Source: a virus (Duplodnaviria; Caudoviricetes). From it: 64,000 nucleotides of DNA. The stretch lies in the IMG/VR virus record IMGVR_UViG_3300044796_000401; one strand, written 5' to 3'. Below the pieces are notes generated by a model. The model had not been told where the DNA came from. It was given only the letters and a program-made list of their open reading frames with translations, and searched no databases. The position numbers were made by a program, and so were the translations under genes. This document shows, in pieces, positions 57,275-64,000 of this stretch (position 1 is its first letter; each line of letters opens with the position of its first letter).

Positions 57275-58477
57275 TTAGATACTGAAATTGACCGTTTTGT
57301 CGGCTTTCTTCTTGGCGTGAAACGCTTTCAAGCTCTCGGAACGCTTGAGCTTGGTCGCTTCCGACTGTGTTTTGCCTTCAAGGGACCGGGATATTTTGTC
57401 ACGGGTTGCGGCGTCCCGTTCCTTGCCGTATGTCCAATGCTGTTCCCTACGCGGGCGGGCGGCATCAAGCGCAGCCACGGCGTTGGGATTAGCGGTGTAG
57501 AATTCCTTGTGCGACTCGGACATTTTTTCCTTCGTTTCCTCGGAATGAAATTTGCCGCCCATCGGTCCCAATGTTCCATACCATGGGTTGTTTTCACCAA
57601 GGCGGGCACCAGAATCCTTTAGTTTTTGCTTGGCTTCCTCGGACCAATTCCAATGCTTGCCTTTGGCGAGACCTTGATGTACCGGATGTTCGGGGGGTTT
57701 AGGAATACCAGTCAATTTCTTGCGGATTTTGCCTTTGGTCTTCTCGTCCCGTTCCTTGCCGTGCAGCCAGTGTTCTTCGCCGCGCGGCATATAAGAATAA
57801 GCATTGTCACCTTTGGCTTTTTCTTCTTCGTGACGCTGCGTTGTTTTCTTCCTGATAGCTCTGCGTGACTCTTTGGTATGGAATTGCGCCCTACCTATCT
57901 GGTATCCCTGTTCAAGATAGGCGGGAACTTCCTTGGTTGGCACACGGTAAGACTCAGAACCCCTGAAGACCCATTGCCGGGGAGGGGCGGTCTGCGTCCA
58001 ACCCGAATCCAAATAGCGTTGAAGCTGGTTTGCGGGAATGATGGTGCGGGAACTCTTTCCTTTGTAGACGTGCAGCCATCCGTCGATGGAATCCAGCTTC
58101 GCGCACATTCTTGCAAACGCACTAGATATTTCCCGCAGCAAAGCTTCGTCATATCCGCTTTGAGCAAGCAGATTGAAACGACTGTGACTGCACATCTTGA
58201 GGAAAGACAAATAAGCGACGGGATGTTTGGGCAGCGCCCGATACAGATAGTAGTGGGCGACAAGGTGGTCGGCGGGAGACAAAGGCTTGCAATTCCATGG
58301 ATGCTTCTTTAAGGAGACGAATTCGGGAAACATGGCACGGGGCAAAATGTGATGGTGGTGGCAGCGGCCCATTGAGGGGTGTTCTCGCGGCGACAGAGCT
58401 TGTTCGATGAACGTCAAATAAACGTCCGTCCAAATCGGATCAGGGAATAGGGATAACAGTTGTTCTCGTATGTCCAT
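57275..58477 (-). CDS. HNH-type (HHILP) homing endonuclease with NUMOD3 repeats
   Basis: HHHILPRAMFPEF...N...HLVAHYYL; GENNPWYG, HSEETKEKMSESH and QSEATK. Paralog of 60612..61523. Confidence 0.75.
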   Translation of the reverse strand: MDIREQLLSLFPDPIWTDVYLTFIEQALSPREHPSMGRCHHHHILPRAMFPEFVSLKKHPWNCKPLSPADHLVAHYYLYRALPKHPVAYLSFLKMCSHSRFNLLAQSGYDEALLREISSAFARMCAKLDSIDGWLHVYKGKSSRTIIPANQLQRYLDSGWTQTAPPRQWVFRGSESYRVPTKEVPAYLEQGYQIGRAQFHTKESRRAIRKKTTQRHEEEKAKGDNAYSYMPRGEEHWLHGKERDEKTKGKIRKKLTGIPKPPEHPVHQGLAKGKHWNWSEEAKQKLKDSGARLGENNPWYGTLGPMGGKFHSEETKEKMSESHKEFYTANPNAVAALDAARPRREQHWTYGKERDAATRDKISRSLEGKTQSEATKLKRSESLKAFHAKKKADKTVNFSI

Positions 58478-58631: not shown

Positions 58632-59591
58632 TTAGTTTTCCCCGACGTTGGCAGTCGAAGCGTAGCGTCCGTTGACGTGAAGCGCCTGAATGCCACTTGG
58701 GTTGAAGACGAGGAAGCCGAGGTTTTCAAATATGCTAAATCCTATTTGACGAAGGTCCGGACGATCCGCCGACATGACTGTCAGAGGAATACGTTCGGGG
58801 ATCACACCGAGGAACTCGGCGTCCGCCAGGATGTAGATCGAGCCGTAGCCGACCTTACGGGACTGGAGGAGCGTTGCGCCCCAGAGATAGCCCATGACAC
58901 CTGTCTTGAGCAGCTTGCGCTGAGTTTCCCTGTCGATGTTCTGTTGGGTCCACTTCAACAGGTCCGTGTAGTCGCGGGGGTTGAAGAAGACGAATGCCAC
59001 CGAGAGGTCGTGGCGCTGCACCTGCCCAAAACCGTCTGCCATCGAGTTGATGTCGATGGGGGCGTTGATGGCGATGCTCACGTTGTAAACCGGGTCGTTG
59101 GCCGACTTTGCGTTGGCGGCGGTAGCCACGGCGTCAAAGAGCCCGAAGACGTATCCGTCTTCCTGCGCGCCAACTTCGGCCTTAGCCAAGTTGAGCGAGC
59201 GGGCGACGAGATCGAACCTGCGTTCCTTGATCTGGGTGATCGGAATCATCGGGTTGGAGACGATTTCGAAGGTGGGAACAGTGACACGCTTCGGCTTGGT
59301 GACGCGGACGATGTCCCCGCCCTCTTCGCCGACGACGAATGCTTCCACGAAGGACGAGCCCGGCGTTGAGCCGACCGTCATCGCGGAAGTGTCAAATTCC
59401 TTGTCGTAGATGGGCAATGCGCCATCCGGCAGCGTTTCGACCATGAGCGCCTTGCGGGCGATACTCATGTAGTCGCGACGGCGACGGAGGGAAGGACCGA
59501 GAGAAGCAGCGAGCTTCTGGCGGCCGCCAGCGGTCTTGAGAAGCTGACCGAGCATTGCGGTTTGCTGTTGTGTGCGAGATAGATTAGCCAT
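58632..59591 (-). CDS. major capsid protein (HK97-like fold inferred)
   Basis: 319 aa, downstream of scaffold-like and decoration-like genes, with its own terminator. Pattern RKALMVETLPDGALPIYD...PTFEIVSNPMIP...RRFD...EVGAQED...ENLG is typical of large-phage capsids. Confidence 0.8.
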   Translation of the reverse strand: MANLSRTQQQTAMLGQLLKTAGGRQKLAASLGPSLRRRRDYMSIARKALMVETLPDGALPIYDKEFDTSAMTVGSTPGSSFVEAFVVGEEGGDIVRVTKPKRVTVPTFEIVSNPMIPITQIKERRFDLVARSLNLAKAEVGAQEDGYVFGLFDAVATAANAKSANDPVYNVSIAINAPIDINSMADGFGQVQRHDLSVAFVFFNPRDYTDLLKWTQQNIDRETQRKLLKTGVMGYLWGATLLQSRKVGYGSIYILADAEFLGVIPERIPLTVMSADRPDLRQIGFSIFENLGFLVFNPSGIQALHVNGRYASTANVGEN

Positions 59592-59611
59592 AGTAGTTTC
59601 CTAGTCTCCCT

Positions 59612-60431
59612 TTAGAGCAAGCTCGCAACGCCGAGCCAAGGCTCGCCGCTGGTTGGAACGTGGGTGCAAATGCCGACGGGAACTGCGACACCTGTGCCGC
59701 CGTCATTGCTACCCTCGGAGTCGGTGATGGAAACGTACAATCCAGCGCGCTTGGCAGTGCTGCCACCGCAATAGACGTACGATCCAACTGCGAAGTTGGT
59801 GGTGGTTCCGCCATAGGCTTGAGAGTCCACGTTGCCTTGCCACAGGGCGCGGACAACAGGGGCTTTCTTGGAACCGGATGGGCCGATGGCTCCAGCAAAT
59901 TCGCCGGGACCATTGAGTAGGGTTGCGAACGGGACATGGCCAACGGTGCTTGCAGCAGCACGGTCACAGGGGACGATGTTGCCGATAGTACCGAATGCAG
60001 GCTCATTAGCGGTCTGGATCACATAGGTGGCACCGTTGCCTGAGTACCCAGTTACGGTAGAGGTCAAGGCAACGATTGTGCCGCCAAGATAGCCAGCGGT
60101 TGTGAGGCTCTGTTGGTCGGTTCCCGGATCGCCAGAGAGCGCGATGGCAGGCGTAACGTTCACGCTGTCATTTTGCCCGTAATCATTTTGAGGGGCATTT
60201 GTTACCAGCGTTGCTGGGACAGGTCATTTCTGCCTATCTCTCACGGTTTTTATTCCCGTAATGTTCGGACTATCGCATCACCCGGTCTGGGTGCCCTCTC
60301 ACTTAGTCTCTCAGGCTGCCTTTCGGCTTGCCCCTTGTTGGCGTTTCAGCGTTCAAGTCAATCAGAGAAGGTTGTTTTCCCTTGGATTCCGCCAAGGAGA
60401 CCCATTACGTTTAGGTCAGTTTTAGTGACAT
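59612..60431 (-). CDS. capsid-associated (decoration-like) protein, 196 aa after splicing: join(60413..60431, 59612..60183)
   Basis: Exon 1 ATG TCA CTA AAA CTG ACC T joined to exon 2 AT TAC GGG CAA gives MSLKLTYYGQNDSVNVTP in frame. GGAG SD upstream of 60431. Confidence 0.8.
60184..60412 (-). mobile_element. group I intron, 229 nt, no internal ORF
   Basis: P1 GACCU/GGGUC with U.G at the 5' splice site; P10 CGUAAU/AUUACG; P7 GACUA (60304-60308)/UAGUC (60268-60272); S-like GCGAUAGUCCGAAC; terminal G at 60184. Confidence 0.9.
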
Positions 60432-60541
60432 ATTGGTTGGTTTCTCCAGTTAAAGTTGAAACTTGAACGTTTAATTTGCCCCTCCAATCCGGCCTCTTTT
60501 GGGAGAGGGTAGGACTATAGAAGAACACGTTCAATGAAGGA

Positions 60542-60564
60542 TTGAGAAAAATCATTTTTCTCAA
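60542..60564. promoter_or_regulatory. perfect palindrome TTGAGAAAAAT-C-ATTTTTCTCAA (operator or hairpin)
   Basis: 11-bp arms, lying between divergent genes. Confidence 0.45.
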
Positions 60565-60611
60565 AACTAACGATTTTGTCGTTTTGGCACTTTTTGGGGT
60601 ATTATATAGAT

Positions 60612-61523
60612 ATGCAAATAGATAGCCACCTCAAAGGGGTCTTGCAGGCCAAAGTCCCAGACACGGATTTCACAAGATATTTTGGTTTTCTCGAATCTTG
60701 CTCGTGCGATGAGCATGGCGAACGTCATCACATATTGCCGAAGACGGAATTTCCGGAGTATAAAACCCATCCGAGCAACATTGTCCGGATTTCTGTTGCC
60801 AGCCATCTCTATGCCCACTATTGGCTGGCCGTCTGCGCCCCCGATTGCAGAGCATTCCAAAGGGCCTTTTTTCTGATGGCGAGAGTGGATCACACGGATA
60901 TTAATGCAAGTTCCTTGCCCGAATATGCTGCGGTTCTGAAGCGGGGGAGGCTGGCCCAGAAACAGCCATGGACGCGGCAGCGCCGAAGACGGCAATCCGG
61001 CATCGCAACGAAAGTAAATGCGGTCGAGAACTCAAAACTCCGGGATCGAAAATGCCTGTACTGCGGACAAGAATTCAAGCGGGTTACCAAGGGGGAATTC
61101 GGCGGCCATCGCCGCTTCTGCCTGCATTACAAAGACAAGGAAGTTTCTGTCCGTCCGTTTGTTGTCTTGACGAGTATGAAGGTCAAGCGATGCGGCAAGT
61201 GCGGCAAGGAAAAGTTGTTGGACGCTTTCAATGTAGAACGCAAAGCACGGCTTGGCCGGGCGAATTATTGCCGAGACTGCGCCCACGAGCACCGCAAGAC
61301 CCCCAGTGCATCACAACTGCATGATTTCGTGTGCCCGGATTGCGGTCGAGACTTCAAGCAGGTAAAGCCGGGCGTTTATGGCGGACATCGGCGAAGCTGT
61401 TTGAATTACGGCGCTAGGCGGCAAGAATTTGAGTCTTGGAGTGGTTCTGCCCAAGAATTCGCAAACACGCATAGCCTGCCGTTGCAGACTGTACGGCGCT
61501 GGGAAAACAGCCCCCTCAACTAG
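60612..61523 (+). CDS. HNH-type (HHILP) homing endonuclease with Zn-finger/HTH tail
   Basis: ERHHILPKTEFPEY...N...HLYAHYWL, several CxxC motifs and a C-terminal HTH. Start re-called at M13. Confidence 0.75.
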   Translation: MQIDSHLKGVLQAKVPDTDFTRYFGFLESCSCDEHGERHHILPKTEFPEYKTHPSNIVRISVASHLYAHYWLAVCAPDCRAFQRAFFLMARVDHTDINASSLPEYAAVLKRGRLAQKQPWTRQRRRRQSGIATKVNAVENSKLRDRKCLYCGQEFKRVTKGEFGGHRRFCLHYKDKEVSVRPFVVLTSMKVKRCGKCGKEKLLDAFNVERKARLGRANYCRDCAHEHRKTPSASQLHDFVCPDCGRDFKQVKPGVYGGHRRSCLNYGARRQEFESWSGSAQEFANTHSLPLQTVRRWENSPLN

Positions 61524-62129: not shown

Positions 62130-64000
62130 TTAAAACTCGTCGTTGCCGAGCAATGCGGATGCGATGTCGATCGGCTTCTTCTCGGAGGCAACCACGGGCT
62201 TCAGCTTCTTGATCACCGGAGTTTCCTTCTTGGCGGCTGCCTTGGGCTCTTGCAGTTCGTTGGTCTCGTCCTGCTTCACGCGCTTGAACCCGCCCTCTTC
62301 GGCTTGCTGGTTCTCGATCGCTTCGGCGAACAGATCGCCTTCGTGATCCTGCTCGTTGTCGCGGCTCTCGCCGGTAGCGGTGTCGGATTCGAACTTCTTG
62401 GCCGCCTCGCCTGTGAACGACGGGATGACTTCCATCCCCGCGACTTCGGCTGCGGTGCGGATTTCGCCAGCGATCAGGCGGGCAAGGGGATCGGAGTCCG
62501 AGCCCTTGAGGGAGAAGAAGTCTTCCATCGACGCGATCTGGGTGTCGTCAAGGGAGGCTTCAAGGCTCTCGGCCGCGGACGGCGCGAAGAACTCCTCGCC
62601 GTTCCCGGCGGTGTGCTCGTCGCCCTCATTCGCCAGCGAGGAGACCTTGTCTTCCATCTCGTCTTCGTTGAAAATCTGCGAATAGTCAAGCTCTTCGCCC
62701 TCGACGTTCTCTTCGAGAATTTCCTTCTCAAGGGCGCTGATGGCTTCCTGGGCTTCTTCGATCTTTTCCTCGACGACCATCTTCTTCTCGTCGCTGAGGA
62801 CTTCCGCGGCATTGTCTTCCACCGGGGCTTCCTCCGCTGGAGGTAGCTCGGCCGGAGGCTCGATTGCGCCTTCGTCTGTCGGGGGAACGTCCCCGATCGG
62901 GGCTTCCGCGCCTTCCGCCGGAGGAGCGTCCGTGATGCCTACCGCGGGATCGTCCGCGGTCTTGGCTGCGCCGCACTTGGCGCACTTCTCGCCGTCCGCC
63001 AGCTTTGCGCATTCCGCGCACTTCTCGGCGTCCGCCTTCTTTTCCTTTTTCTTCTCGTCCTTCTTCTCGTCCTTCTTCACGCCAGCGTCCTTGGCGGCTG
63101 GAGCGGCGGCGGCCTTCGAAGCTTCCTTGCCCTTGCCTTCGCCCTCGGATTTGTTGATCGTGTTCGCCGGGCGGTTCGCCGCTTCCGTCTGCGACTTGCC
63201 GGAGCCAGCGTCCATTTCCTTCGGCTCGGAGTGGGTGCCGCCGCCGCATCCGCGCCCGTCATTGTAAGTTTCGACTTGGGGACCGGCATCCTTGCGGTCG
63301 TCCGCGACCTTGGCGGCAGCCTTCGCTTCGCCGTTGAGTTCGGATTTGATCGATGCCTTTTCCGACTTCAGAATGGAGGGGTCTTCGAGGAGATCGTTCA
63401 TTTCGACCTTGTGGACTTGCTTGAAGGTCTCGGCGACCTTCGAATAGTGCGCATTCTTCGCCGTCTGGCGGAGCATGGCATTCAGAACCGGGGTCGGGTT
63501 CTGGAGCAGATTCGCGGCGGCACTCTTCTGTACCTCCGCTGGCGCTGAAGGCAGCATCGTCTTGGCGATGGTCCAAGCGGCAGCGACGCGCTGTTGCGCT
63601 TCTTTCTTGATCGCTTCGCGCTTCGACTTTACTTCCGCAAGCTTTTCCTTCAAAGACGGCTTGCTGGGGGTCTGGGTTGCCATGGTAGAACCTTCCTTTT
63701 TGAGGCTTGAAGGGCCGGAATTGCCCTTCCTATTAGGGGATTGAAAACTGTTTTTCTCGCTTACTGGGGATTTTGCGCTTGCCATCGGGGTTGCAACGGG
63801 GGCTGCGGGCTCTTCGACAGGTGCCGGGACAGGTTCTCCGATGGGGGCCGCATCAAGCACGGGCTCCTCAATGGGGGCTGCCTCAGGAGCCACGGGGGCT
63901 TCTGGAATCGGTGCGGCTTCGGGGGCGAGGGGCGCTGCGGGTTCCGGAGCCATGCCCAGAGCTTCCGGGCCTCCCAAAAGGTCACCAACCGGGGCTTGCT
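62130..64000 (-). CDS. prohead scaffold-like protein, 5'-truncated by the window edge
   Basis: Frame stays open to position 64000. Pro/Glu/Ala linker, coiled coil and acidic tail with KxA motifs; located upstream of the capsid genes. Confidence 0.7.
   Translation of the reverse strand, partial: QAPVGDLLGGPEALGMAPEPAAPLAPEAAPIPEAPVAPEAAPIEEPVLDAAPIGEPVPAPVEEPAAPVATPMASAKSPVSEKNSFQSPNRKGNSGPSSLKKEGSTMATQTPSKPSLKEKLAEVKSKREAIKKEAQQRVAAAWTIAKTMLPSAPAEVQKSAAANLLQNPTPVLNAMLRQTAKNAHYSKVAETFKQVHKVEMNDLLEDPSILKSEKASIKSELNGEAKAAAKVADDRKDAGPQVETYNDGRGCGGGTHSEPKEMDAGSGKSQTEAANRPANTINKSEGEGKGKEASKAAAAPAAKDAGVKKDEKKDEKKKEKKADAEKCAECAKLADGEKCAKCGAAKTADDPAVGITDAPPAEGAEAPIGDVPPTDEGAIEPPAELPPAEEAPVEDNAAEVLSDEKKMVVEEKIEEAQEAISALEKEILEENVEGEELDYSQIFNEDEMEDKVSSLANEGDEHTAGNGEEFFAPSAAESLEASLDDTQIASMEDFFSLKGSDSDPLARLIAGEIRTAAEVAGMEVIPSFTGEAAKKFESDTATGESRDNEQDHEGDLFAEAIENQQAEEGGFKRVKQDETNELQEPKAAAKKETPVIKKLKPVVASEKKPIDIASALLGNDEF

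Follow-up and report, generated by a model that had tools for sequence, protein, structure and literature searches.

The group I introns in the nrdD, td and nrdB genes of phage T4 and those of Staphylococcus phage Twort belong to type IA2 and have been shown experimentally to self-splice; introns of this type carry the additional hairpins P7.1 and P7.2 between the 3′ strand of P3 and P8. In cyanophage S-PM2, a small group I intron lacking an open reading frame (ORF) interrupts psbA, the gene for the photosystem D1 protein, and adjoins the gene of a free-standing homing endonuclease, F-CphI, for which cleavage at the intron insertion site and collaborative homing with the psbA intron are described in later accounts of that work (Zeng, Bonocora & Shub 2009, cited in PMC3984707; PMC6083498). 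Spliced introns have also been reported in virion structural genes, namely the capsid genes of mycobacteriophage LittleE and lactococcal phage Tuc2009, and the tail gene of phage BAKA, where the intron has 265 bp and is ORF-less (PMC3706429). Here we analyse a 64,000-nt stretch of DNA (IMG/VR record IMGVR_UViG_3300044796_000401; Duplodnaviria, Caudoviricetes), hereafter the window, from an uncultured phage of peat and pond whose relatives include jumbo phages. We conclude that positions 60412..60184 (all features are on the minus strand unless stated otherwise) form a true group I intron, compact and ORF-less, which is spliced out of the late mRNA in vivo, a reading to which we assign a probability of about 0.93. 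The intron splits the gene directly upstream of the major head protein gene. As in LittleE, BAKA and Tuc2009, it is a group I-type intron in a late structural gene, with U ending exon 1, G ending the intron and splicing visible at the RNA level, in a genome with free-standing HNH endonuclease genes such as those in which the three phages are rich. In contrast to these, where the insertion sites are internal to the gene, the window intron lies 19 nt from the start codon.

Exon 1 (60431..60413) consists of 19 nt (ATGTCACTAAAACTGACCT), which encode MSLKLT and the first base of Tyr7. The intron extends for 229 nt from A60412 to a terminal guanosine, G60184, and exon 2 (60183..59612; 572 nt including the stop codon) begins with ATTACGGGCAAAATGACAGCGTG right after this guanosine, in the same frame as the ORF ending at 59612. 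Joining U60413 to A60183 gives the coding sequence join(60431..60413, 60183..59612) for a protein of 196 aa, which begins MSLKLT-Y-YGQNDSVNVTP and is in frame with the ORF called from GTG 60163. In the unspliced RNA the frame ends after MSLKLT, at a TAA (60413..60411) lying across the 5′ splice site; the T4 and Twort introns likewise open with a stop codon. An earlier reading of the window made from the letters and ORF translations, hereafter the sequence-only reading, had proposed such an intron after a 19-nt first exon, with restoration of MSLKLT-Y-YGQNDS, a stop after six codons without splicing, and a truncated GTG start chosen by the gene caller. All of this can be read in the sequence and agrees with the homologs. 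The interval that it gave, 60184–60431, does contain the intron but also takes in exon 1, the intron proper being 60184–60412.

The N-terminus of the spliced product is fixed by its homologs, of which 378 were found in a large protein collection. Among the 120 listed, 83 begin exactly with MSLKLTYYGQNDSVN, and 105 fit the relaxed pattern M-x-[LVI]-K-x-x-Y-x-G-Q, in line with the expectation that there would be homologs beginning MxLKLxYYGQND. The other 15 comprise the window's own miscalled product (P0003, which begins MNVTP from GTG 60163) and proteins with odd starts, and the DNA encoding two of these, P0019 and P0023, carries the same intron. A tblastn search of isolated phages gave one relative, gp333 of Tunturiibacter phage Tunturi_5, a 309-kb jumbo myovirus infecting Acidobacteriota (PMC11924767). 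This gene, which is uninterrupted and likewise precedes the major head gene, encodes a protein beginning MLKLVNYGQNEG. The nearest known intron-less homolog (P0004) has 81% protein identity. A start at GTG 60163 would cost the protein 13 residues that rank among the family's most conserved, and no Shine-Dalgarno sequence is seen before it on reading the sequence. A GGAG at 60447..60444, 12 nt ahead of the exon-1 ATG, may serve as the Shine-Dalgarno sequence of the true start, and Tunturi_5 gp333 likewise has a GGAG a few bases before its ATG. The N-terminal peptide predicted for the spliced gene is MSLKLTYYGQNDSVNVTPAIALSGDPGTDQQ.

The exon junction itself is observed in environmental RNA. Peat and pond metagenomes contain the window's sequence, and a peat metatranscriptome (X15) includes 88% of the words sampled from it. 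Over the region 59500..60700, one X15 contig (306 nt, depth 11.2, no mismatches) covers 59907–60182 and then 60412–60441, skipping 229 nt with one ambiguous base; this is the loss that the sequence-only reading had predicted for the junction. Shifting the joint by 1 nt corresponds to removal of 60184..60412, and only that reading leaves U at the end of the exon and G at the end of the intron. The 30 nt on the exon-1 side equal the k−1 overlap at a branch of an assembly graph built with 31-letter words, so that words spanning the junction should exist in the reads. In the one DNA run compared, from peat (X4), the region is unbroken in a 41.8-kb contig that has no such joint. No X15 contig covers 60197–60237, a gap that we did not use for any conclusion. 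Cases in which intron splicing in an uncultured phage can be seen directly in environmental RNA are few, and this is one of them.

The intron contains the elements of a group I ribozyme in their expected order. The last five bases of exon 1, GACCU (60417..60413), pair with GGGUC (60403..60399) to form P1, in which U60413 and G60403 make the wobble at the 5′ splice site. GGGUC is the second part of an internal guide sequence (60409..60399), the first part of which, CGUAAU (60409..60404), forms six perfect pairs with AUUACG of exon 2 (60183..60178), giving P10. The P2 hairpin (60397..60380, CCUUGG/CCAAGG) is followed by P3 (60371..60365 with 60300..60294), which encloses P4 (60357..60354 with 60337..60334), P5 (60350..60341, two pairs closed by a U-GAAA-C loop), P6 (60332..60330 with 60316..60314) and P6a (60327..60318), a GCC-GAAA-GGC hairpin with a GAAA loop. 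P7, the presumed guanosine-binding helix, is formed by G60310 and GACUA (60308..60304) with UAGUC (60272..60268) and C60267; A60309 is bulged, and the helix encloses the 3′ strand of P3 and P8 (CACCC, 60293..60289, with GGGUG, 60283..60279). The 3′ domain consists of P9 (60263 and 60261..60256 with 60246..60240), P9.1 (60238..60233 with 60223..60218), which carries the conserved loop CAGAAAUGA (60224–60232), and P9.2 (60217..60213 with 60209..60205), and G60184 stands immediately before exon 2, following the terminal-G rule. The P1, P10, P7, P8, GCC-GAAA-GGC and P9 hairpin elements and the terminal G that had been pointed out from the sequence are thus all at the places given for them. The core order, P3-[P4-P5-P6]-P7-P3′-P8-P7′, is pseudoknotted, as is typical of group I topology, and the loops L5, L6a and often L8 are of GNRA type. 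A minimum-free-energy fold of the window's own sequence recovers the nested helices P1, P2, P3, P4, P5, P6, P6a, P8, P9, P9.1 and P9.2 (z = −2.4), and the P7-P8-P7′ pattern occurs once in the window and in none of 100 shuffled sequences.

The topology of this fold is established by covariation in a large family of relatives. A strict pattern of three conserved blocks (GATTGACTTG...GACTAAG...GCGATAGTC) is matched by at least 119 IMG/VR contigs. In 100 aligned cores, scored for P3, P4, P6, P7 and P8 with P3 and P7 as crossing pairs, 99.3% of the cells are paired, compared with only 37–52% for control structures slid by one to three columns. Compensatory changes are found in 14 of the 23 pairs, a level reached by none of 500 shuffles, the support coming from P3, P6, P8 and the outer P7 pair, since positions fixed by the search pattern are uninformative. 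All seven pairs of P3 show such changes, as do the three of P6 and the three tested in P8, and the outer P7 pair, across the bulge, is A-U in 80 cores, G-C in 19 and C-G in one (G60310-C60267 in the window). Pairing in P4 reaches 100%, one position being either U-A or U-G. The pair G60308-C60268, a candidate guanosine-binding site next to the bulged A60309, is invariant, both of its bases being fixed by the search pattern. In the 43 distinct relatives that share this 3′ domain, pairing amounts to 97% in P9 and 98% in P9.1, with two to seven standard pair types at most positions. The 9-nt P9.1 loop, CAGAAAUGA, is almost invariant in these relatives while its stem covaries freely, and may be a tertiary-contact motif, for example the receptor for one of the GNRA loops.

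Outside the core, pairing is maintained in the relatives that interrupt the same gene. P10 follows synonymous changes in the exon: the guide is GUAGU where the exon has ACUAC (L124) and GCCAUA where it has UAUGGC (L157), and in L123 a G.U replaces a G-C pair. In P2, the window's CCUUGG/CCAAGG becomes CCUUGA/UCAAGG in L124. Between lineages the intron is 96, 92 and 87% identical at the nucleotide level vs 78, 75 and 72% for exon 2, which would fit either recent transfer or constraint on the RNA and was not used as evidence. A covariance model built from the family, R1, scores the window intron at 105 bits (E = 4e-23), and no second R1 match was found within the 64-kb window.

The family is not confined to this gene. 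BLASTN of the region gave, at 72–74% identity, gaps inside a split ribonucleotide reductase gene of Roseobacter phage CRP-118 and inside a split P22-type coat gene of an uncultured phage. When the ORFs downstream of the 100 family members were classified, about 31 were major head proteins (phrog_283, 1357, 9953), followed by tape measure, tail, portal, ribonucleotide reductase and endonuclease genes, in a census that is rough since some of the ORFs are possibly the next gene rather than exon 2. With these numbers and the published capsid and tail introns (PMC3706429), the view of the sequence-only reading that an intron beside a capsid gene is uncommon does not hold for this family. Several contigs carry two or three copies of the intron within 1–2 kb (three in L016 and L078; two in L005, L020, L024, L027, L046, L071, L077 and L082), and these probably represent structural genes that are interrupted more than once. 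In the peat and soil metatranscriptome runs X16 and X20, contigs 90–95% similar to the intron core (60220–60373) are present at depths of up to 40 with unrelated flanks; they are other family members, abundant in environmental RNA, and not the source phage.

Several observations weigh against the assignment or against splicing. The Rfam group I model, RF00028, one of the checks suggested by the sequence-only reading, gives no match to the window, neither at its gathering score (50 bits) nor at E ≤ 10 on 801 nt. The window copy of P5 has only two Watson-Crick pairs, and a second G, at 60196 after UAACAAAUG, is also in frame as a possible alternative 3′ splice site. On the RNA side, the joint comes from contigs rather than reads, and from a single contig of one study, in which the exon-1 side amounts to 30 nt. 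An RNA library can hold DNA, and a joint derived from an intron-less variant identical in the flanks is formally conceivable. Unspliced pieces across the 5′ splice site are also present in X15 (60239–60441 and 60412–60619), which could be precursor RNA or carried-over DNA.

The failure of RF00028 extends to the relatives, as at its gathering score there were no matches in 20 family loci with about 25 copies. The same model finds its controls, with 105 bits for T4 nrdD, 64–101 for three Twort introns and 88 (87.8) for S-PM2 psbA, and only 28.6 for the BAKA tail intron. In turn, R1 scans of the whole S-PM2, T4 and Twort genomes gave only weak matches (14.5–20.5 bits), all of them inside known introns (psbA, nrdD and the Twort cluster) that RF00028 detects as well, the psbA intron being the only match (20.5 bits) in the 196-kb S-PM2 genome. 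Because the controls are found, the P3–P8 core covaries and R1 weakly picks out the T4, Twort and S-PM2 introns, we read the RF00028 miss as a blind spot of that model for the whole family and not as evidence against a group I fold. The family thus belongs to the true group I introns, as a divergent branch, with a P7 region closest to that of the phage IA type. The strands of P7 and their flanks are nearly the same as in the T4 and Twort introns, most of the family having AACGACUA...AUAGUCU in an alignment with Twort, and the bulged base in P7 is shared. In the window intron, unlike those of T4 and Twort, P8 comes right after the P3 3′ strand without intervening hairpins, J3/4 is longer (UGAUUGA) and there is no internal ORF. 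The introns of LittleE, BAKA and Tuc2009 belong to unrelated lineages, and R1 finds nothing in BAKA or Tuc2009.

As for the 3′ splice site, G60196 was considered and rejected. The tail that it would give, ending after UAACAAAUG, resembles those of the relatives, but its use would leave the intron without P10 and add five residues, SPQND, that are absent from the homologs, and the RNA joint is at 60184. The intron tail (60184–60199) contains two ...AAAUG motifs 12 nt apart, ending at G60196 and G60184, either of which is in frame. The introns of the relatives end soon after UAACA, and the last 12 nt of the window intron look like a short insertion or duplication.

From these elements, splicing would proceed as follows. 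Pairing of GACCU at the end of exon 1 with the guide GGGUC would form P1, whose U.G wobble would mark the 5′ splice site; with the pseudoknotted P3–P8 core folded, a guanosine presumably bound at P7 would attack after U60413. The guide CGUAAU would then hold AUUACG of exon 2 in P10, the terminal G60184 would be exchanged into the guanosine site, and ligation of the exons would yield the mRNA for the 196-aa protein. On unspliced RNA, the in-frame UAA across the 5′ splice site would halt ribosomes after six codons. Autocatalysis and the use of exogenous guanosine are here inferred from the conserved architecture.

The distribution of the intron suggests a selfish element that occupies the best-conserved portion of the gene. 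Among 73 IMG/VR loci for the host protein, R1 matches 10 (94–103 bits) directly ahead of the gene's conserved part, and the other 63 have no such match. With the frame restored under the U and G rules, the introns fall at three sites within 12 bp, on the family's most conserved codons: after coding nucleotide 19 in the window, L123/L125, L124 and L157; after nucleotide 18 in L128 and L167–171, where the guide is GGCCAGU with one A.C mismatch; and after nucleotide 8 in L133/L137. The introns at these other sites have guides that match their own exons. The RNA backing concerns the window junction only. The finding of one intron family at three sites of a single gene is new here.

A divergent gene for a free-standing homing endonuclease lies directly upstream of the split gene in the window. 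This HNH-like gene (60612..61523, plus strand, 303 aa; phrog_655 'homing endonuclease', E = 1e-12, and phrog_12434, HNH) starts 180 nt from the ATG of exon 1. A gene of this kind, divergent and directly upstream, is present in all 13 intron-bearing loci examined, which represent seven lineages, vs 19 of the 51 intron-less loci with enough flank. Full-length homologs of the window HNH-like ORF (81, 53 and 47% identity) are found in four intron-bearing lineages and beside none of the 51 intron-less loci. Three intron-bearing lineages have a GIY-YIG gene instead (Pfam PF01541, E ~1e-10), a type that also stands beside 19 of the 51 intron-less alleles. These loci are not phylogenetically independent.

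These data raise the possibility that the intron and the divergent HNH-like gene form a collaborative homing unit, which would supplement the interpretation as a spliced group I intron rather than replace it. The endonuclease would cleave alleles lacking the intron within the conserved ~35 bp at the start of the gene; during repair, intron and endonuclease gene would be copied jointly, and the intron, by splitting the target site, would shield its own genome. The presence of the upstream gene in every intron-bearing locus, the restriction of full-length HNH-like homologs to intron-bearing alleles, and the clustering of the three sites, as expected if the selected effect is the disruption of one recognition site, agree with this proposal. 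So does the precedent of the S-PM2 psbA intron with F-CphI (reviewed in PMC3984707), which is likewise small, ORF-less, in a protein gene and next to a free-standing endonuclease gene. In S-PM2, however, the endonuclease is EndoVII-like and encoded downstream, and the host gene product is a photosystem protein rather than a head-decoration-like one, whereas the window endonuclease, as judged from its sequence, is HNH-like, divergent and upstream. Against the proposal stand the lineages with GIY-YIG genes, the lack of independence among the loci, and the abundance of free-standing endonuclease genes around the capsid module of these phages, for instance at 57275..58477, so that adjacency may be simple linkage. 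The pairing is a candidate one drawn from co-occurrence. On balance we consider joint spread of the intron with its endonuclease neighbour to fall just short of an even chance. A broader proposal is that these introns represent a very large clade of 200–230-nt group I ribozymes, invisible to Rfam, unrecognised in the literature and specialised in phage virion genes. In the present gene family, the clade would have struck three times in the 12 bp next to the start codon, on each occasion coupled to a divergent free-standing HNH-like or GIY-YIG endonuclease gene, and the intron would confer immunity within a homing system of two parts that targets the most conserved 5′ codons of a head gene. This we regard as tentative, and as somewhat less probable than the homing unit taken by itself. 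A cluster of three insertion sites in 12 bp, every one next to an endonuclease gene, offers a compact natural system in which to study how introns and endonucleases cooperate.

Another question is whether the RNA splices on its own. The intron might be removed in vivo only with a protein cofactor of the phage or host, or as a degenerate ribozyme helped in trans. This would be compatible with the minimal P5 and the lack of large peripheral domains, with the failure of RF00028 to recognise the intron and with the unspliced contigs found beside the spliced one. However, every core helix and both guides are intact, selection of the kind revealed by covariation acts in more than 100 relatives, and the GNRA loops L5, L6a and L8 together with the conserved 9-nt L9.1 loop suggest self-contained tertiary contacts. 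In addition, group I introns of comparably small size (~200–250 nt) do self-splice. We therefore consider dependence on a cofactor unlikely.

Still less probable, in our view, is the idea put forward in the sequence-only reading that splicing times or gates the production of the head protein. The start codon and the exon strand of P1 fall within one ribosome footprint, so that initiation on the precursor and formation of P1 should compete, and spliced and unspliced forms are both represented among the RNA contigs, but these points are circumstantial. Most relatives, including the one 81% identical, make the same protein without the intron, its occurrence in only 10 of the 73 loci is a presence/absence pattern like that of a selfish element, and no regulatory partner or switch structure is seen. 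Finally, that there is no splicing at all, the gene starting at GTG 60163 below a dead intron remnant or 5′-untranslated element and the joined contig stemming from a co-occurring intron-less strain, is very improbable: it can appeal to the choice of that GTG by the gene callers and to the single contig with its 30-nt side, but the junction lies exactly where predicted beforehand, with no mismatch over 306 nt, the nearest known intron-less homolog has only 81% protein identity, the X4 DNA run shows only the intron-bearing form, and the GTG start loses 13 of the best-conserved residues and has no Shine-Dalgarno sequence.

The kind of element described here is known already. The value of this locus lies in the corrected gene model, in a family that escapes RF00028 and in the candidate intron–endonuclease system. 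The truncated start chosen by gene callers recurs in public protein sets (P0003, P0015, P0019, P0080 and others). As RF00028 misses the whole family, and the family is abundant in viromes, many split capsid, tail and ribonucleotide reductase genes of uncultured phages are probably mis-annotated, which a dedicated covariance model would fix.

The product of the split gene is probably a capsid decoration or cement protein, as suggested by weak fold matches and by its position before the major head gene. Neither Pfam nor PHROGs gave a match to the protein. An AlphaFold model built from 43 sequences (predicted local distance difference test, pLDDT, 70; predicted template modelling score, pTM, 0.76) found nothing at E ≤ 0.001 in Foldseek searches of the PDB and BFVD, the best E-value being 0.04. 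With VIA-align, the best matches, which extend over the full length, were all capsid decoration or cement proteins, with weak Z-scores of 5.5–7.8 (BB1, HFTV1, FCWL1, T1, Pam3, TW1 and E217). The Tunturi_5 homolog, gp333 (L001 2986–3483), is labelled 'tail fiber protein', a label without support in these fold matches; its position and the fold matches of the window protein point weakly to a decoration or cement identity for it as well.

Directly downstream of the split gene lies the major head protein gene (58632..59591; phrog_2522, E = 1e-42), and just past it a gene for a NUMOD3-bearing free-standing homing endonuclease of 400 aa (57275..58477). The head module is therefore flanked on both sides by free-standing homing endonuclease genes, and in the relatives GIY-YIG, HNH or EndoVII genes occupy the same two positions. 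A scan of 59500–60700 for promoters and terminators gave nothing exceeding shuffled sequences. Exact matches to the upstream motif AGAGGCCGGATTGG were found only in L123, L124 and L125 among 208 loci (pattern-scan, gene-homolog and control). Upstream of the head module, a 615-aa protein (62130–63977) has a scaffold-like composition, strongly acidic with much Ala, Pro, Glu and Lys; its sole match, to a portal PHROG, is marginal (E = 0.0017). A near-perfect palindrome, TTGAGAAAAATGATTTTTCTCAA (60545–60567), lies in the interval that separates the divergent endonuclease gene from the decoration-like gene; it is kept with small changes in L123 and L124 and may be an operator or a bidirectional regulatory site.

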